64,000 nt of DNA, taken from the sequence record NC_007023.1. One strand, 5' to 3'. Shown here one piece after another: positions 940-58,295 of this stretch; the stretch's first letter is position 1; each line of letters begins with the position of its first letter. Below the pieces are notes generated by a model. It did not search any database and was not told where the DNA came from. It saw only the letters and a program-made list of their open reading frames with translations. The position numbers and the translations under genes are program-made. The DNA is from Escherichia phage RB43.

Positions 940-3150
940 CGCTTTATCTTCCAGAATATACCGGATTTGATAGCCATCACTGTTTCTCAGGATTCGAGCA
1001 ATTAACGGATTGCGTTTAGCGAAAATCTCATATTGTTCGTCAACGCGTTCAATCATTGCATGTTCCATTTCTTCATGTCGGGCCTGTGCCACACGAATAG
1101 ACGGGTTCTTTGCTTCTGTCGTTTCACCGTCTTCTGTAGTCTGCATCAACACTTTACCATCAAGCGTGTTCAGAATATTGTATCGACGCGCATCATAACG
1201 GTTTTTAACCATGCGATCAAGGCTAATACCCAACTTTTCATATAGCTCTTTAACGGAATCACGGTACTTTTTCGAAACAAAAGCCGGATACCAGTTAGGT
1301 TTCATTTCTTTTGCAGTCTTGCAGAACAATTCAGCAAGGAACGTATCAAGACAAATCATGCTGCTGTCTGGGATCTTATTCCATAACGAATTACGGAGTG
1401 TATACACCACACGAACACCAGAGATTTCCATCACAGTAGCCAGGTTATTCATGATGTTTGACATCGAGAAGTTATTCGACTCACTCAACGAACTGTAATC
1501 ATCAACACCATACAGACGCAATGCGTATGCAGATTCGAGGTTGACAAACTCCGCTTTCGTGAGGAACAAATCTTCTTTGTTCAAATCGCCATTGATCCCG
1601 ACCGTGTAACGGTATGCTGTCGGCGTTTTCGGACGCGGTTCGGAATCTTTATCGATTGTTTCGCGTGTTGCTCTCCAGCGACGGCGATCCTCAGTATACA
1701 CTTCCAGTTCTTCCGTCATTTCACTGGTTTTCAGATAAACGATTTCAGATTCATCATAGTAACCGTTTTTGATGAAGTTCTGTAAATTATCCTGATTTCT
1801 GTTCGGATCGTATTCAATAAAGTTCATACGGTAAGTTTTGTGAAGCATACAGTACCCGATAGCATACGCACGTACAGACTTCGCGTTGTTATCGTTCTGT
1901 AACAGATACAGGTTTCTTTGCTTCCACGGGTGCAGCATACGCGTAATATCCTGGCGGCGCATGGTTTCAGATTTATACGCGTCGTAACGACGACCAGAAC
2001 CTGTGCGCTCAAAACTGCAATCTTTACCGTCATACACGTTCGCCCAGTATCCCCAGATCTGCATACTGGTGACCAGGTCTTTACTATTGAAGTGCATCAC
2101 CAGTTCAGCAAGGGTATTTTTCCCTACTTTAAACTGCTTATCACGGGTAACGAAAGTCTGCAACAGCGTTGGTAAATTTTGATACCAAATAACCTTTTCA
2201 CGCGTCGTTTTCAGTTTAGCAAATTCTGCTGATAGTTCTGAATAATACTGGTCGTTGATTGCTCCGAGTCGATCCATGATAACTTTCTTGGTGATCTTAT
2301 CAAGGCTTAACTCTTCGCGTGACGGCATGAAATCCAGAGAACCCAGCGGAAAATCCAAAATGTACGCATAGCTACTGTTCTGGTAGCAATAAAACAGGGA
2401 TTCTCTGAACATATCCAGGTCAATAGGATAGCAAATGTTACCCATACGCGCATACAAACCGGAATAATGCTTTGACTTATAACTGATGATCCCGCGATTA
2501 TTTGCTTCTGTCGGTTGCCAGTTGATATCCAGTTGAACACCAATAAAGCGAGGACGAATAGTTGTAAACGCTTCGTACACACGAGCGGCTTCACGTTCCC
2601 ATTCTGGGATATCTTCGACGTTAACCGGAACTGTTACCTGAACGCCGTTAGGTTCATCAGTTTCTACAGCATACAGAGGGTCAATGTACGGTTCGCCGTC
2701 TTCATTGAGGTAAGCAGTATAACCGCGCTTCATGCCGTCCTGAATTGATTCTACGGTGAATGTTGAGGTGTAGCAGAACGGTGATTTGCTACCCAGCCCC
2801 AACGCCCCGATCAGGTCGTCGGTGTCGGTTTTGGTTGATTCGAAATAAACGGTGAATACTTCGTTCACCATGTAATCACTCAGGCCAGTACCGTAATCAC
2901 GAACGATGAAACGAGGATCGAGAACAGTCGGTAACTGAACGTCAAAGCGATCCATGTTACCCGCTACGATATGACCATCAATCGCGTTACAAGAAATCTC
3001 ACGAATGATTGCGCGGATCTTGTATTTGTAGATTGTGGATGAAAGGATTTTGAACGCTTTCTTACCTGCTCTCATTCCAAAAGCTCTACGGCTTCCAGAC
3101 TCGATACCTACACGATGAACTGTGCTTGCTTGGCTTTCGCGTAACTTCAT
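940..3150 (-). CDS. rIIA: rIIA-like protein (about 737 codons, reads in frame into rIIB)
   Basis: ORF track 1..3150; N-terminal ATPase-like motifs (NAIDGH, DYGTGLS, GLGSKSPF) resembling T4 rIIA. Confidence 0.7.
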
Positions 3151-3933: not shown

Positions 3934-4005
3934 TTTACATCCTCCTAATCGGTAGCGGGAGTAATATAACAAAAAAGCCCCTGCATCGCAAGGGCTTAAT
4001 GTAAA

Positions 4006-9628: not shown

Positions 9629-9958
9629 TTAACGTAAGTATTTGACATACCCAGACGCATCGATGCTGTTTTCTGGGTTGTTGTAGATGTTACCACGAAT
9701 ACCCTTAGCAGGTGCTTTCCAGCCAGCGGCTTTGTAGATATTCCCGTCATTATCCAGGAATCCGGCAACTGAACGCTGGTTGAACATTTCACCAGTTTCT
9801 TTGTTGCGAGTATCCTGCACGATGCGGTGATACTTACGACCTTTCTCCAGAGTGAAAACAGTTTCAAACGGAGAATCCTGGAAACGTGCGTTACGAGCAA
9901 CGAACATCGCGTTCAGGTAAGGTGCTGCGGCGTTAGCGAGAGTTTCAAAAGTATTCAT
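9629..9958 (-). CDS. hypothetical protein (109 aa)
   Basis: ATG (MNTFETL) 7 nt after AAGGAGA; preceded by conserved promoter-leader cassette. Confidence 0.5.
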   Translation of the reverse strand: MNTFETLANAAAPYLNAMFVARNARFQDSPFETVFTLEKGRKYHRIVQDTRNKETGEMFNQRSVAGFLDNDGNIYKAAGWKAPAKGIRGNIYNNPENSIDASGYVKYLR

Positions 9959-9990
9959 GGTAAATCTCCTTAGTTCGTTTCGATGTGTGT

Positions 9991-10019
9991 ACTGTATCAA
10001 AGTCGGTATTTTAAAGCAA
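9991..10019 (-). promoter_or_regulatory. promoter (TTGCTT-N17-TACAGT; -35 region also matches MotA-box TGCTTTA) with conserved leader
   Basis: Read on minus strand; followed by leader GTACACACATCGAAACGAAC shared with three other genes. Confidence 0.45.
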
Positions 10020-10024
10020 GCGTT

Positions 10025-10237
10025 TTATTGATTTTCGAGCAAATAATTTAAATGGGCTTTCAGTGCCGGAAGTTCAGCAATATGATTCTGCTTAACTTTC
10101 TCATACTCTTTACGTTCCCACGGTTCCAGATCAGAAGCCAGTGCTTCATTGCAGTATGCGATCCCACGTTCCGCGTCTTGAACCATTTGGGTCCACTGTT
10201 TTACCGCTTGTTGGTGCATTGAACCGTTAACCATCAT
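10025..10237 (-). CDS. hypothetical protein (about 70 aa)
   Basis: ORF; ATG 8 nt after AGGGGAGGAA. Confidence 0.4.
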   Translation of the reverse strand: MMVNGSMHQQAVKQWTQMVQDAERGIAYCNEALASDLEPWERKEYEKVKQNHIAELPALKAHLNYLLENQ

Positions 10238-10461
10238 AATCATTTCCTCCCCTTGTTTTGATGGGATAACTATATCAAAGCTACCCCGCGAAGTCTTTAG
10301 CAAAAAGTGCTATGAATGCACCCAATTTCCGATCGCTACGATAAAGCAGGTAATGAAAGGTGCATTACAGAAAAAGTAGATCCCGTAATCAAATTCGGGA
10401 AGTTTAAAATTGTGGGCTGCGAGATAAACAAAGTTAGCAAACACCCACAAAGAAAAGACGA

Positions 10462-10686
10462 TCAAGAATTCGAACATAAATCAACCTGTTTTCCCTGATA
10501 CCATTTCGGGAATGTAACCTTTTCAATCAAGATCCGCGCCAGGTTGTAACTGTCACCGAAGAGAAGAACCCCGAACAATGGGTCTTTTTTAATATCACCC
10601 TTACCGACTGTTCTCATATGCCCTTGATGAATCACGGTGTCGCCCACCGTGATATCTTTGATACTGACTTTTGTTACATGATACAT
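10462..10686 (-). CDS. hypothetical protein (74 aa)
   Basis: ORF track only. Confidence 0.3.
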   Translation of the reverse strand: MYHVTKVSIKDITVGDTVIHQGHMRTVGKGDIKKDPLFGVLLFGDSYNLARILIEKVTFPKWYQGKQVDLCSNS

Positions 10687-10835
10687 ACGATAACCTCAGC
10701 GAGTTTAGCAGGTTTTGCTTCTGGTCTGATTTTCAGAGCATCATTTAAATTGTTTTCAACCATCGCTACTGCGTCTTTTTCGTTGAACCCGTTTTTAACC
10801 AGGGCTTTAACTACTTTGGCTTCTAAGTTTTTCAT
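10674..10835 (-). CDS. hypothetical small protein (53 aa)
   Basis: ATG (MKNLEAKVV) directly after conserved leader ...CGAAACGAAACAGACAAAGGAACGCATC. Confidence 0.4.
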   Translation of the reverse strand: MKNLEAKVVKALVKNGFNEKDAVAMVENNLNDALKIRPEAKPAKLAEVIVCIM

Positions 10836-10871
10836 GATGCGTTCCTTTGTCTGTTTCGTTTCGATGTGTGT

Positions 10872-10900
10872 AATATACTGCATATCGAAATTCGGGTCAA
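10872..10900 (-). promoter_or_regulatory. sigma70-like promoter (TTGACC-N17-TATATT) with conserved leader
   Basis: Read on minus strand; followed by TACACACATCGAAACGAAACAG leader. Confidence 0.5.
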
Positions 10901-10908
10901 TACCCAAA

Positions 10909-11394
10909 TCAAAGAAAATCGTATTTTTCTTTTAATTTTTCGTAATACGTACCCCATGCGGCTTCGTCGTTAATGATCTCAGTACCGAACCGATAAGCAC
11001 GTTTTCGCAGTTCGAAACGTTCACGGATACGCTCAACATTGATTTTCACTGATTCCGGCGTGGGTTTCCAGTCTGCACAAAGATGACGATGAAACAAGGA
11101 GTTTAACAACGGACTAAGATCGAAATCTTCATATGTTCCGTCCATGTATTCTTTACCATTACGTGCGAGGTATTCAGCACGTAATGCAGCATGACGATCG
11201 CGAAGGTATCCCAGCTTATTGTAAAAGAAGGTTACGTGTCCAGTTCCCAGCGTATACACAGCAGGTATTTTAGACAGGTTGATTTTTGCCTTACCGGATA
11301 AAACGGCATTGGGAATGCGCGGGAGTTCGCGGAGTTCTGCGATCAGGTGTTCGTTCAGCAGAAGAGAAGGATCGATTGTGTTAATACGTGTCAT
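10909..11394 (-). CDS. denV: pyrimidine dimer DNA glycosylase (endonuclease V)
   Basis: MTRIN... N-terminus and GHVTFFYNKL motif resemble T4 DenV; GGAGG SD. Confidence 0.8.
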   Translation of the reverse strand: MTRINTIDPSLLLNEHLIAELRELPRIPNAVLSGKAKINLSKIPAVYTLGTGHVTFFYNKLGYLRDRHAALRAEYLARNGKEYMDGTYEDFDLSPLLNSLFHRHLCADWKPTPESVKINVERIRERFELRKRAYRFGTEIINDEAAWGTYYEKLKEKYDFL

Positions 11395-11422
11395 AATTGC
11401 CTCCGTTTGTGTATGTGCGTAA

Positions 11423-11460
11423 TATACAAAAAAGCCCCCTGCATTGCAAGAGGCTTCTTT
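11423..11460 (-). terminator. terminator hairpin of the GCCC-TGCA/TGCA-GGGC family with embedded -35 and downstream TATATT
   Basis: Minus strand AAGCCTCTTGCAATGCAGGGGGCTTTTTTGTATATT. Confidence 0.5.
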
Positions 11461-11474
11461 AGCAAAAAGTGCTA

Positions 11475-11771
11475 TTATCTCAATAGTCGTTTACGAATAC
11501 CGCCATCACGGGTTTGGTCGTAAATCGCTTTTGCTTCTACTATTGTCTTTTTCAGTGTATGGCTTTCCCCGTGTCCGGTAAAATAGAACTCAACGAACCC
11601 TTCGTAAAGGTTTACATGGGTCGTCACACCTTCACCACGGAAGTGTTTCACAAACTGGCGCGTATTATACTTAAACCAATCATGGGCTTCCCCGTGTCTG
11701 TATAAGGAGTGGATCACAAATGCACCACCAACACTAATCAGAATAAGGCCAATTACTATAAGAGCGTTCAT
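11475..11771 (-). CDS. membrane protein (98 aa, hypothetical)
   Basis: N-terminal TM helix ALIVIGLILISVGGAFVI. Confidence 0.45.
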   Translation of the reverse strand: MNALIVIGLILISVGGAFVIHSLYRHGEAHDWFKYNTRQFVKHFRGEGVTTHVNLYEGFVEFYFTGHGESHTLKKTIVEAKAIYDQTRDGGIRKRLLR

Positions 11772-11984: not shown

Positions 11985-12128
11985 CCTATCGTGCCGCCAG
12001 AAGACGAAGCCATTCACCCAACCAAACGATCGCCTCGTAAGACAACCATAATCCGATTGATACAATCGAAATCATACCAATAATTGCAAATGCGAATAGA
12101 ACCTTAAACCCTTCTTTCAAATCAAACA
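11985..12128 (-). CDS. small hydrophobic peptide (47 aa)
   Basis: Not in ORF track (<60 aa); AAGAGGA 6 nt before ATG; MFDLKEGFKVLFAFAIIGMISIVSIGLWL... Confidence 0.35.
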
Positions 12129-12167
12129 TAAATTGTCCTCTTTTGTCTCAGTCCCTATAAAATAACA

Positions 12168-12197
12168 AAGCCCCTGCACGAATGCAAGGGCTTTTTA
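12168..12197 (-). terminator. terminator hairpin (same family) with embedded -35 TTGCAT
   Basis: Minus strand AAAAAGCCCTTGCATTCGTGCAGGGGCTTTGTTATTTT after LysM gene stop. Confidence 0.55.
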
Positions 12198-19656: not shown

Positions 19657-19680
19657 CAAAAAAGCCCCGAAAGGGGCTTT
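19657..19680 (-). terminator. rho-independent terminator
   Basis: AAAGCCCCTTTCGGGGCTTTTTT on minus strand. Confidence 0.6.
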
Positions 19681-26330: not shown

Positions 26331-26369
26331 CAATATAACAAAGCCCTTGCAGAAATGCAAGGGCTTTTT
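26331..26369 (-). terminator. terminator hairpin (same family) with embedded -35 TTGCAT and downstream TATATT
   Basis: Minus strand AAAAAGCCCTTGCATTTCTGCAAGGGCTTTGTTATATTG. Confidence 0.55.
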
Positions 26370-26371
26370 GA

Positions 26372-26740
26372 TTAATGTCCGATCCGGTACTTGTATTTCA
26401 AAGTCCATTCGGCTTTTTGTGCGTGGGTCAGTACGCGGAAGTTGTTTTCTTCGGAGAATTTCAGATCAGGTGTAAGGATCTTAATCATCCCCCACTCTTC
26501 CAGAAGTCTCGCAATGTTGTTGCGGCGCAATTCGTCGTCTTCGGTCATATCAACCTGGCGACCATCCAGTTTCAACAGTTCTTTGAAGTGCGTAATGAAA
26601 TAGCGCCCTTGCTTCTGTAGAATATGGCACGATTGCCACAACATTTTCTTTTTGTTATTTGCGATCCCGATACGGGTCAGCGTTTCGCGAATTTTTAAAA
26701 AACTGTCGTCGCTGGACAGCTTGATTTCGAGCATGTTCAT
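26372..26740 (-). CDS. regA: translational repressor RegA
   Basis: 122 aa; ETLTRIGIANNK..LWQSCHILQK..DGRQV colinear with T4 RegA. Confidence 0.85.
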   Translation of the reverse strand: MNMLEIKLSSDDSFLKIRETLTRIGIANNKKKMLWQSCHILQKQGRYFITHFKELLKLDGRQVDMTEDDELRRNNIARLLEEWGMIKILTPDLKFSEENNFRVLTHAQKAEWTLKYKYRIGH

Positions 26741-50171: not shown

Positions 50172-50248
50172 GGCCCTTTAGCTCAATTGGTAGAGCGAAC
50201 CCCTCATAAGGGTGTGGTTTCCGGTTCGAGTCACGGAAGGGGCCACCA
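50172..50248 (+). tRNA. tRNA with CAU anticodon (Met, or Ile2 if lysidine-modified)
   Basis: Cloverleaf by hand: acceptor GGCCCTT/AGGGGCC, D-arm GCTC-AATTGGTA-GAGC, anticodon loop CTCATAA, T-loop TTCGAGT, 3' ACCA; T-stem carries one extra base. Confidence 0.6.
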
Positions 50249-56181: not shown

Positions 56182-57682
56182 ACTTGCATCGACTCTGAAA
56201 ACCTCAGAGAAGGAAGCAATTTTAAAACGTAATGCAAACAACCTATTGTTGAAAGAGATTTTCCGAATTACGTACACAAAACAGATTATGTTCTATGTGC
56301 GTAAGTTTCCCCAGGTGGACGGCAAACCAGGAACAACCCCGCTATCAAATGCAATCGCGGACCTGATGTCCGATTTAGCATCGCGGAAGTATACAGGTAA
56401 TGCAGCCCGCGATCGCCTGATGGATATTGTGTCATCAGTAAACGAGAACGATCGCGAAGTGTTGCGCCGTATCATTAACCGCGATCTTGAATGTGGTGCG
56501 GGTACAACTCTGCCAAACCGCGTATGGAAGAAACTTATTCCAGAACAGCCTCAATGCCTCGCTACGCCGTTTAGTGAAAAAGCCTTAAAACGTATTCGCT
56601 TCCCTGCTTACTCTCAGCTTAAAGCCGATGGTGCGCGTTGTATGTCGGATCTGTTAGAAGACCAGATTCGCAAAGCAACCCGCGCTGGAAATGAGTATAC
56701 AGGTTTGGTTGATCTGGATAAGGATTTGAAAAAGATCCGCGAATATCTGGGTTATGATGTTGTGCTGGATGGAGAATTGATTTATGTCCCTACTGAAAAA
56801 GCTGTTATCGAACCTGCAAGCGGGATTCCTTTTAGTCTTGCTGGGTTTATGGATGATGACGACGATGATATTTCTGGTCTTGTGGCAGATGTTCGACGGG
56901 AAACTACCGAGAACGAAACACTGGAAGAAGCGAAACGCGAAGAGGGCAACGGGATTGTAAACAAATCCCTGAAAGGCACTATTAGCGACGAAGAACAGCG
57001 CAACATTGTATATGTTGTCTGGGACATCATACCGTATGAAGTTTATTATGGCGATGCTCCGAGTGTTCAACCGTATTGCGATCGTTTGTCTATCCTGGAT
57101 GGTGCTCTGGCTGGTTCTGGGGTATCGTGTGTTAAGTTAATCCCTTCTCGCGTTGTGTATAACATTGCAGAAGCAAAACTGGATTACAACAACTATCGAA
57201 ATGACGGTAAAGAGGGTTCTATCCTGAAAAATACCGATTTCGTCTGGAAGGATTCACGCGTTGCGGACCAGGTTAAGTTGAAGAACAAAACCCCGATTGA
57301 ACTACGGATCATCGACGTATACGCGCATACCAAAGAACCCCATAAAGTAGGTGGTTTTGTGGTTGAAGACTTATCAGGCGAAGCCAGGACAAACACAGGT
57401 TCCGGTCTGACTGATACAGACTACCGCTATGATGAAGATGGTATTACGCGTGTGTATATCCCGTTAGAAGAACGCGGAGAACTGGATCGCGAATACATCA
57501 TGGCGAACAAAGATGACTATATCGGCGCTATCGTCGAAATGGAAGTTGACGGACTCCAGAAGTCTAAGACGCGTAAGAAGGGCGAACCTGAATACAGTTT
57601 CTTCTTACCAATCATCAAGAAGATTCGACGCGACAAGACCGAACCGGATGACATTCACGTTATCTTTGCAGATTTGTTTTAA
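56159..57682 (+). CDS. 30: ATP-dependent DNA ligase
   Basis: MILSILNELAS N-term, KADGAR adenylation motif, colinear with T4 ligase. Confidence 0.9.
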   Translation: MILSILNELASTLKTSEKEAILKRNANNLLLKEIFRITYTKQIMFYVRKFPQVDGKPGTTPLSNAIADLMSDLASRKYTGNAARDRLMDIVSSVNENDREVLRRIINRDLECGAGTTLPNRVWKKLIPEQPQCLATPFSEKALKRIRFPAYSQLKADGARCMSDLLEDQIRKATRAGNEYTGLVDLDKDLKKIREYLGYDVVLDGELIYVPTEKAVIEPASGIPFSLAGFMDDDDDDISGLVADVRRETTENETLEEAKREEGNGIVNKSLKGTISDEEQRNIVYVVWDIIPYEVYYGDAPSVQPYCDRLSILDGALAGSGVSCVKLIPSRVVYNIAEAKLDYNNYRNDGKEGSILKNTDFVWKDSRVADQVKLKNKTPIELRIIDVYAHTKEPHKVGGFVVEDLSGEARTNTGSGLTDTDYRYDEDGITRVYIPLEERGELDREYIMANKDDYIGAIVEMEVDGLQKSKTRKKGEPEYSFFLPIIKKIRRDKTEPDDIHVIFADLF

Positions 57683-57700
57683 ATAGCACTTTTTGTTAAA

Positions 57701-57737
57701 GAAGCCCCTTGCGTAAGTGAGGGGCTTTTGTTATTGT
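57701..57737 (+). terminator. terminator hairpin (GCCCCTTGCG...GGGGC) with embedded -35 TTGCGT and -10 TATTGT 17 bp later
   Basis: GAAGCCCCTTGCGTAAGTGAGGGGCTTTTGTTATTGT. Confidence 0.55.
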
Positions 57738-57774
57738 ACACACATCGAAACGAAACAGACAAAAGGAACATCCC

Positions 57775-58044
57775 ATGAACATCAATAAAGAACTCGAAGG
57801 CAAAGTAATCAACCTGGCAGACCGTGCGCGGTTTGAAAAGCTGGCTAATGGTGGTGAATCTCTGGGTGATGCAGTAGCATTATTCGAAAGACTTCGTGTT
57901 AAACGTGTTGTAGATGGCTGGGTTATCGCTCTCCCTGTTGCAGACGAAGACAAAGCGGTTTACGATCCTGTTGCCGATTCATGGGATATTGAAATCTGTC
58001 TGGTTAATATTGAAGTAGAACTTTGCTTCGAGGAAGAAAAATAA
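57775..58044 (+). CDS. hypothetical protein (89 aa)
   Basis: ATG preceded by conserved leader ACACACATCGAAACGAAACAGACAAAAGGAACATCCC. Confidence 0.5.
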   Translation: MNINKELEGKVINLADRARFEKLANGGESLGDAVALFERLRVKRVVDGWVIALPVADEDKAVYDPVADSWDIEICLVNIEVELCFEEEK

Positions 58045-58057
58045 TTAATTAAACCAC

Positions 58058-58086
58058 TTGCACATCGCGAGGGGTTTTGATACATT
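58058..58086 (+). promoter_or_regulatory. sigma70-like promoter (TTGCAC-N17-TACATT) with conserved leader
   Basis: Followed by CCATATCGAAACGAAAGGAG leader and ATG 58116. Confidence 0.5.
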
Positions 58087-58115
58087 ACCCATATCGAAAC
58101 GAAAGGAGAAACATC

Positions 58116-58295
58116 ATGAAAGTTATGCACACTGCGAACCAACTTCAAAACGGCAACTACGCGATCCACGATGCTATCGGTGCGCTGGTTGGGGTTTATC
58201 TTCCTGGTAGCAAATACCTTGAAGTTAGTGGGAATACCTTTACTGATGTTGAAAACATCGAAGCAGCAATGGAAATCATTGGTGAACTGAAATGA
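58116..58295 (+). CDS. hypothetical protein (59 aa)
   Basis: ATG 7 nt after AAAGGAGAA. Confidence 0.45.
   Translation: MKVMHTANQLQNGNYAIHDAIGALVGVYLPGSKYLEVSGNTFTDVENIEAAMEIIGELK

Follow-up and report, generated by a model that had tools for sequence, protein, structure and literature searches.

A repeated promoter and leader cassette upstream of small early genes in Escherichia phage RB43

The repeat and its setting in the RB43 genome

We analysed a 64,000-nucleotide stretch of the genome of Escherichia phage RB43 (NC_007023.1; the whole stretch is hereafter called the window), a T4-like phage of the genus Pseudotevenvirus, with a focus on a repeated promoter and leader in the interval 9959-10900. 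This interval belongs to an early region amid the topoisomerase gene, denV, dexA and dda (gp39-denV-dexA-dda). The window numbering is the RB43 numbering used in the supplement of Nolan et al. (2006), and the records HE981739/HE858210 are 100% identical. An earlier note, made from the sequence alone, had described a promoter, a near-identical leader, a Shine-Dalgarno (SD) sequence and an ATG in front of two small minus-strand genes, had reported the same leader at two places on the other strand, and had proposed for it a shared post-transcriptional role.

The repeat, TACACACATCGAAACGAA, occurs exactly three times in the window, at 9974-9991 (-), 10855-10872 (-) and 57737-57754 (+), and a fourth copy, TACCCATATCGAAACGAA, with two mismatches to it, is found at 58086-58103 (+); these are copies A, B, C and D, respectively. 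Matches of this type are expected 0.04 times by chance, and four or more were obtained in none of 100 dinucleotide-preserving shuffles of the window. The ATGs that the earlier note had assigned to 9958 and 10835 are there (9958-9956 and 10835-10833), and the layout of -35/-10, leader, SD and ATG was borne out, as -35-like and -10-like hexamers separated by a 17-bp spacer lie 5′ of all four copies. Copies C and D on the other strand are real too, although they had been placed at 57738 and 58091, off by 1 and 5 bases. In the full 180-kb RB43 genome there are five exact and two diverged copies of the motif. All seven are on the coding strand, 10-25 nt 5′ of an annotated coding sequence (CDS), with a -10 hexamer directly 5′ and an SD and ATG 3′, and the sole extra match at up to three mismatches lies within a CDS and is at chance level. 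A copy without a promoter was found nowhere in the 180-kb genome, the real copies all starting 6 nt past a -10 hexamer.

The four genes served by the window copies are mutually unrelated small ORFans that fall into four different PHROGs (Table 1), and therefore the repeat is not a by-product of gene duplication. Copies B and C share everything between the -10 and the SD, including the whole 5′ untranslated region (UTR) of about 32 nt. The copies differ in their upstream halves: a 13-bp GC stem-loop with a T-run is found in copy C, a shorter one with a T-run in copy D, and a 9-bp one over the -35, with no clean T-run, in copy B. Copy A has no stem-loop, with -1.5 kcal/mol across the whole 61-nt upstream region. 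A 21-nt element that includes TAGCAC is present in copy C and in sister cassettes E and F, and is absent from copies A, B and D.

Table 1. Repeat copies, the genes they serve and sister cassettes in the RB43 window. Transcription starts (+1) are predicted.
Feature	Position	Strand	Description
Copy A promoter	9991-10019	-	-35 TTGCTT 10014-10019; 17-bp spacer; TGa-extended -10 TACAGT 9991-9996; no hairpin
Copy A discriminator and leader	9959-9990	-	ACACAC 9985-9990; predicted +1 A 9984; ATCGAAACGAACTAAGGAGATTTACC; SD AAGGAG 9966-9971; unstructured
Copy A gene	9629-9958	-	109 aa; DUF7717 / phrog_5014; function unknown
Copy B promoter	10872-10900	-	TTGACC 10895-10900; 17-bp spacer; TATATT 10872-10877; 9-bp hairpin over -35
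Copy B discriminator and leader	10836-10871	-	ACACAC 10866-10871; predicted +1 10865; leader ATCGAAACGAAACAGACAAAGGAACGCATC
Copy B gene	10674-10835	-	53 aa; phrog_9411; function unknown
Copy C upstream half	57682-57743	+	21-nt element aaATAGCACtttTTGtTAAAg 57682-57702; 13-bp GC hairpin 57700-57729 with -35 TTGCGT 57709-57714; T-run
Copy C -10 region	57732-57743	+	TGt-extended -10 TATTGT 57732-57737; discriminator ACACAC 57738-57743
Copy C leader	57744-57774	+	ATCGAAACGAAACAGACAAAAGGAACATCCC; predicted +1 57744; ATG 57775
Copy C gene	57775-58044	+	89 aa; phrog_7207; function unknown
Copy D upstream half	58051-58092	+	weaker GC hairpin with -35 TTGCAC 58058-58063; TGa-extended -10 TACATT 58081-58086; discriminator ACCCAT
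Copy D leader	58093-58115	+	ATCGAAACGAAAGGAGAAACATC; predicted +1 58093; ATG 58116
Copy D gene	58116-58295	+	59 aa; phrog_14120; function unknown
Sister cassette E	10235-10314	-	TAGCAC element 10292-10314; TGaTATAGT; discriminator TATCCC; diverged leader ATCAAAACAAGGGGAGG; heads gene 10025-10237
denV (endonuclease V)	10909-11394	-	flanked by cassettes F and B
Sister cassette F (denV promoter)	11392-11476	-	TAGCAC element 11454-11476; GC hairpin/terminator; TATATT; discriminator ACGCAC; leader ATACACAAACGGAGG
Sister cassette G	12127-12195	-	GC hairpin; TATTTT; ATAGGG followed by ACTGAGACAAAAGAGG
Sister cassette H	3963-3997	-	GC hairpin; TGtTATATT; unrelated leader
Sister cassette I	26332-26383	-	GC hairpin; TATATT; unrelated leader

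Alignment of the seven genomic copies revealed that the leader is the 3′ part of a cassette of 80-90 nt, composed in order of (a stop codon), aaATAGCAC-N4-TGYTAAAG, an optional GC hairpin containing TTGC, a T-run, TGnTATATT, six nucleotides, ATCGAAACGAA(ACAGACAAAAGGAAC), N and ATG. Using a profile of the upstream half alone we found at least 16 hairpin promoters in RB43, eight of them inside the window. Seven of these 16 cassettes carry a leader of the type ACACAC/ATCGAAACGAA (the slash here and below separates the discriminator from the start). Related starts are seen in other cassettes (GGGGGT/GTTGAAACAAAGGAG, AGGGGT/GTTGAAACGGAACAGACAAAAGGAAC, GGTCTT/GTCGAAACGAAACG and AGGGGT/ACTGAAACGAAAGGAG), and a few, including that of denV, have unrelated leaders. 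The hairpins of F, G, H and I are strong, and those of F, G and H coincide with published TransTerm terminators (Nolan et al., 2006); for cassette F the same study lists the early promoter Pe:11463 and a terminator at 11434-11454. In another class of cassettes a G-rich discriminator, AGGGGT/GGGGGT, precedes GTTGAAAC or ACTGAAAC (HE981739 around 66926, 78803 and 100473, outside the window; window 12153-12158); in a read-through RNA, pairing is conceivable between its GGGG and the CCCC arm of the hairpin of the terminator.

The predicted transcription start and the leader RNA

Three of the four promoters had been listed as predicted early promoters by Nolan et al. (2006): Pe:57694 (57694-57744), Pe:58043 (58043-58093) and Pe:10033 (9983-10033). 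The predicted starts, given by the last base of each, coincide with the A of ATCG in copies C and D and fall one base past that A in copy A. The promoter of copy B, TTGACC-17-TATATT, is missing from that list of 43 RB43 early promoters. Because the ATCG block begins after exactly six variable bases 3′ of the -10 hexamer, its A sits at the canonical start position, so that ACACAC would be the discriminator and ATCGAAACGAA... the initially transcribed sequence and 5′ UTR; this A, the predicted transcription start, is the seventh nucleotide past the -10.

We examined this geometry in 45 non-redundant cassettes from RB43, its relatives and T1-like phages, which were chosen by the presence of the TAGCAC element and of TAnnnT at the expected distance, ignoring the leader. 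The -10-like hexamer ends exactly 6 nt before the conserved block in 43 of the 45. Information content is low from -6 to -2 (0.2-0.7 bit), rises to 1.65, 1.74, 1.59 and 1.30 bit over the four positions from -1 to +3 (C, A, T and C, respectively), and is 0.9-1.65 bit from +4 to +11, decaying beyond. The distance from the T of TAGCAC to ATCG is 49/50 nt in cassettes without a hairpin and 59/60 nt in those with one, a shift of about one helical turn, and +1 is separated from the ATG by 18-49 nt, with one outlier at 105. The anchor of the motif is the promoter, not the ribosome-binding site. As it never appears away from a promoter, a free-standing processing site, one of the roles suggested for it, is not supported. 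The claim that the transcribed leader itself is conserved stood in part: conservation passes the -10, heads unrelated genes and exceeds what is expected under neutrality, but the first six bases of the leader as originally drawn, ACACAC, belong to the untranscribed discriminator.

The comparison with neutral expectation was made for orthologues of gene 10835, picked by protein similarity in nine genomes. Two of 31 leader columns are variable, compared with 23 of 53 third-codon positions (Fisher p=4e-4); at first and second codon positions the count is 12 of 106. Conservation of the leader exceeds the neutral expectation.

As RNA, the leaders are A-rich and poorly structured. The 45 UTRs contain 51% A and 11% U, and 91% of the 45 leaders are less stable in folding than composition-matched shuffles. 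For the four window leaders the minimum free energy is between -1.1 and -4.0 kcal/mol, a stability equalled or exceeded by 176-195 of 200 shuffles. No leader match to Rfam was found, either in the window at gathering score or in 9900-11500 at E<=1. A structured cis-regulatory RNA (riboswitch, leader or thermosensor) is not supported, given this absence of both structure and Rfam match. Pairing is possible in a read-through RNA between CUUUUUGU, in the TAGCAC element, and ACAAAAGG, in the leader. Sequestration of the SD in such RNA was rejected, as the element variants CGAAT/CGATT come with no compensating change in the leader.

The shared post-transcriptional signal of the earlier note amounts to an mRNA recognition site for a trans-acting factor (an endoribonuclease, a protein that binds the 5′ end, or one that represses or activates translation) that would co-regulate early genes, and this we regard as rather improbable. 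An island of 11-12 nt, from -1 to +11, conserved beside a variable discriminator would suit such a site, as would a leader that is more conserved than synonymous sites and is common to unrelated genes and across phage families. However, the motif keeps a fixed position relative to the -10 and not to the SD/ATG (18-49 nt), is never seen without a promoter, and has neither structure nor an Rfam family, and the loose preference found in T1-like phages (see below) is a poor fit for specific binding. We know of no regulator common to RB43-like, T1-like and POP18-like phages.

Regulation at the DNA level was considered as well. A MotA-dependent T4 middle promoter requires a motA gene and a Mot box, (a/t)(a/t)(a/t)TGCTTtA, whose centre is at -30, with 11-13 bp between the box and the -10. 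This class was rejected, since TTGC(T/A/G) and the -10 are 17 bp apart, as in sigma-70 promoters, and not 11-13 bp; RB43 was reported to have neither motA nor a middle-promoter consensus (Nolan et al., 2006). The cassette has no match in 5,426 complete E. coli genomes, and therefore the motif is not a known host operator. It is very unlikely, in our estimate, that positions +1 to +12 form a DNA operator at which a phage or host protein sits over the start site and shuts off or times a subset of early promoters. The fixed position over the transcription start and a tandem CGAAA-CGAAA repeat in the sequence agree with it, another switch is conceivable in a phage that lacks MotA-type middle control (Nolan et al., 2006), and the annotators of phage KP27 used the label 'putative middle promoters'. 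Against this, there is no palindrome and no candidate binding protein was identified, the motif is found in phages of unrelated gene content and is loose in the T1-like ones, and it is absent from the E. coli genomes.

Gene exchange at the cassette and related modules in other phages

Comparison with related genomes pointed to the cassette as a site of gene gain and loss. RB43, Miller, CfP1 and two metagenomic contigs carry denV between cassette F and copy B. Lw1, RB16, IME-CF2 and L038 lack the gene, and in them the hairpin promoter that serves denV in RB43 is fused straight to the copy B leader. Homology between genomes with and without denV breaks exactly between (G)TATATT and ACACAC-ATCG, and both ends of the difference are inside promoter cassettes. 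A second case is contig L035, which lacks gene 10025-10237 and its neighbour and has cassette E joined to a leader and gene of the copy A type; the junction is TATAGTTATCCC/ATCGAAACGAAACAG, reading on as TATAGTTATCCC/ATCGAAACGAAACAGAC... (the slash marking the point of joining). In IME-CF2 the flanks are 98.8% identical to RB43, yet locus B holds the hairpin version of RB43 cassette C. The discriminator is the same within a genome and different between genomes: ACACAC in RB43 and KP27, GTGTTC/GTATTC in a 142-kb contig and KMI9.

As judged from these alignments, the denV and gene 10025-10237 junctions match the shuffling model of promoter (early) stem-loop (PeSL) cassettes. A PeSL extends from an upstream stop codon to a downstream start codon, contains a sigma-70-type promoter with an overlapping stem-loop, and is concentrated in hyperplastic regions (Arbiol et al., 2010, PMC2839356; Comeau et al., 2014, PMC4122927); crossovers in PeSL mini-circles were mapped between the -10 and the SD/ATG, and PeSL-like sequences of RB43 were mentioned in passing, for the g43 locus only (Arbiol et al., 2010, PMC2839356). 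The RB43 cassette likewise spans a stop codon/AT-rich region, a sigma-70-type early promoter, in some copies a GC stem-loop/terminator, and an SD and start codon, the latter being those of the gene it serves. A sigma-70-like early promoter is predicted in all four window copies and is found in the published early-promoter prediction for three of them. The cassette is repeated, at least 16 times in RB43, lies in hyperplastic early regions next to ORFans, and appears from sequence comparison to be associated with indels. The style of the leader is shared as well, as four archetypal PeSLs of RB49 start TAnnnT-N5C/ATCAAGACAA... and ATACCAAACGAAAG.... What sets the RB43 family apart is its sequence, with a TTGC -35 placed within the hairpin, a TGnTATATT -10 and the ATCGAAACGAA leader, and the lack of a stem-loop in copy A. 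We found no mention in the PeSL papers of conservation at the leader or start site, or of a link to T1-like phages.

Early promoters of other virulent coliphages begin in a similar way. The experimentally annotated start of T7 A1 is ATCGAGAGGGAC (also read ATCGAGAGGG) and that of A3 is ATGAAACGACAG, each after a pyrimidine-rich discriminator; like the RB43 leader, these transcripts have an A start and a purine-rich, U-poor first 10-20 nt. The T7 discriminator is 7 nt, compared with 6 nt in RB43, and there is no extended homology between them. The early promoters of T5, studied in the 1980s by Gentz, Kammerer and Bujard, reportedly combine an A start, a pyrimidine-rich discriminator and a purine-rich, U-poor start as well. 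In T5 and T7 promoters positions +1 to +20 are established as acting in late steps of initiation. Unstructured A/C-rich leaders that enhance translation also exist, for example CA-repeat enhancers. The RB43 5′ UTR resembles these in being A/C-rich, G/U-poor and free of structure before the SD, and differs in that its motif is tied to the transcription start, not to the ribosome-binding site.

Pseudotevenvirus and Slopekvirus phages carry the leader with its promoter at 4-7 sites in each genome. The KP27 record annotates the cassettes as terminators, 'consensus' or 'putative middle' promoters; those at KP27 (L040) 287-315, 2338-2371 and 2997-3025 are labelled 'putative middle promoter; discovered using MEME', and their spacing is sigma-70-like; MotA is reported to be missing from phages of the RB43 group. 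The same architecture was found in T1-like Drexlerviridae: Webervirus AYM, Warwickvirus tunus, Veterinaerplatzvirus, Rogunavirus AHS24 and Tlsvirus TLS. Webervirus AYM, the 155-kb Pectobacterium phage POP18 and 'Salmonella phage 19' have a near-identical leader, and a 101-nt AYM cassette has matches in 913 phage records. TAGCAC promoters number about 13 in AHS24, where six have ATCGA(A/G)ACGA, and 17 in TLS. In AYM (L043), a T1-like siphovirus of Klebsiella, an RB43-type cassette at 345-520 is followed by the first nine codons of an RB43-group gene (MKLKRESIK vs MKLVREAIK) and immediately by the next cassette; this gene fragment looks like a relic of exchange between phage families. The 18-mer ATCGAAACGAAACAGACA was also met inside GC-rich, apparently coding sequence of unrelated IMG/VR contigs (L008, L013, L017, L021, L023, L030 and L032); these matches lack a promoter context and were judged to be due to chance.

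The TAGCAC element and the 21-base intergenic repeat found in TLS, T1, Rtp and Rogue1, aaATAGCACnnnTTGnTAAAA, are one and the same; in a promoter of this type the repeat is expected to read along transcription, about 76 nt before the start codon. The TLS paper (PMC11447400) left the function of this repeat open, considering a stoperator, an enhancer site or an UP element, and does not describe the downstream TAnnnT-N6-ATC(G)AAAC part. RB43 differs from the T1-like phages in that it often inserts a terminator hairpin, pushing the element 10-11 bp further upstream, and in that three of its window copies lack the element. The element aaATAGCAC-N4-TGYTAAAG, which also occurs throughout L049 and L051, holds a 5-bp inverted repeat, TAGCA/TGCTA. 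It lies 36-38 nt before the TAnnnT hexamer, or 47-48 nt when the GC hairpin is inserted, and this suggests that it may be the upstream element of a promoter without a canonical -35. A sigma-54 promoter (TGGCAC-N5-TTGC) was rejected, the G-to-GC spacing being 2 bp short and the first G usually an A. Full-text literature searches for the motif strings and for T1-like promoter motifs found nothing relevant.

Two further features of the window lie apart from the cassettes. A perfect palindromic GC hairpin at 19661-19680 (AAAGCCCC-GAAA-GGGGCTTT), with T-runs on both strands, has the look of a bidirectional terminator, and a tRNA gene at 50172-50244 (+; RF00005, 40.1 bits) is the lone Rfam match in the window.

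The cassette as a probable mobile early-promoter module

Taken together, the repeat is probably the start-site, initially transcribed and 5′ UTR module of a mobile early-promoter cassette whose copies are kept alike by both function and recombination. Host sigma-70 RNA polymerase would read the extended -10, TGnTAnnnT, assisted by the -35-like TTGC/TTGAC and, in some copies, possibly also by the upstream TAGCAC-N4-TGYTAAA element, and transcription would begin at the A of ATCG, 7 nt past the -10. The A-rich, U-poor, unstructured UTR most likely aids start-site use and promoter escape, and would leave the ribosome-binding site open before any gene that follows. Where a GC hairpin and T-run cover the -35/spacer, as they do in many sister cassettes and in copies C and D, they may also end the upstream transcript. 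Being repeated, the cassettes can serve as substrates for homologous recombination, which would insert, delete and swap small early genes in a PeSL type of shuffling and at the same time keep the cassette copies nearly identical.

The recurrence of a pyrimidine at -1, an A start and A/C-rich, U-poor, unstructured RNA in several groups of virulent coliphages argues for a functional preference. The near-perfect identity over 18-35 nt among the RB43 copies exceeds the needs of such a preference, and is best explained by recent duplication with ongoing recombination or gene conversion, in view of the indel junctions, the hairpin swap in IME-CF2 and the genome-uniform discriminator. What the sequences show directly is the anatomy of the cassette, the tie of the motif to the -10, the unstructured RNA, the indel junctions within the cassette and the spread across phage families; the transcription start is predicted, and the benefit for escape or translation and the balance of selection and gene conversion are inferred.

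Several observations weigh against this interpretation. Copy A, without hairpin and TAGCAC element, and copy B, with a weak hairpin only, are minimal versions of the cassette, and these are the very copies in the interval where the repeat was first noticed. A literature search for experimental 5′-end mapping in RB43 or its relatives found none. The proposed benefit for escape and translation is drawn from composition, lack of structure and analogy. Finally, the start-region signal is weaker in the T1-like promoters taken alone (33 sites), with 0.9 and 1.3 bit at -1 and +1, respectively, and 0.5-0.9 bit over positions +2 to +11, only about one third of the promoters carrying ATCGAAAC or ATTGAAAC and many sites having A/C-rich variants such as ATCAACCAACGA. 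Therefore the near-identity within RB43-like genomes may be largely a matter of shared descent and gene conversion rather than of selection acting on every base.

Carried to its end, the latter argument would leave the leader with no function of its own, its copies being simply recent duplicates homogenised by recombination or gene conversion. The two indel junctions in the leader, the exchange of hairpin versions between loci, a discriminator uniform within and different between genomes, and the weaker T1-like signal are all in line with this, and still we find it unlikely. In AHS24 and TLS paralogous promoters differ wholly in the spacer, in the discriminator and beyond +12, yet a preference for C(-1)A(+1)TC, and for an A/C-rich start, persists in them, a pattern that homogenisation of whole blocks would not produce. 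In addition, T7 A1/A3 and the RB49 PeSLs have the same style of start without homology elsewhere. A combination of function and recombination remains our preferred reading. A bolder reading holds that C(-1)A(+1)UCGAAACGAA is a specific start-site or 5′-terminal tag of early transcripts in unrelated virulent enterobacterial phages (RB43-like Straboviridae, T1-like Drexlerviridae and POP18-like phages), read by a host or phage factor that favours escape, stability, translation or timing of shut-off, and moving between families on a mobile promoter cassette of which the T1-like 21-base repeat is the upstream half. To this reading we give little credence.

Three of the four promoters (2006 prediction), the PeSL class (2010, 2014) and the T1-like 21-nt repeat are already known. 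In the searchable literature, the RB43-group cassette family with its own leader, the two clean indel junctions, the fixed -10/N6/ATC geometry and the link between T4-type PeSLs and the T1-like repeat appear to be undescribed. The cassette is an ordinary though neat regulatory module, neither a new RNA switch nor a new mechanism, and as a compact unit of terminator, promoter and 5′ UTR it could possibly serve as an expression part. Our analysis gives likely starts for four RB43 early transcription units and adds the copy B promoter at 10872-10900 to the published prediction. denV and gene 10025-10237 provide two clean cases of gain or loss with a junction between -10 and leader, backing PeSL shuffling in the RB43 group, for which it had hardly been reported. 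The promoter architecture shared with T1-like phages, and the near-identical leader of AYM and POP18, also link the PeSL idea to the unexplained 21-nt repeat of T1-like phages, suggesting that this repeat may be the upstream element of a promoter with an extended -10, a preferred ATC start and no canonical -35.

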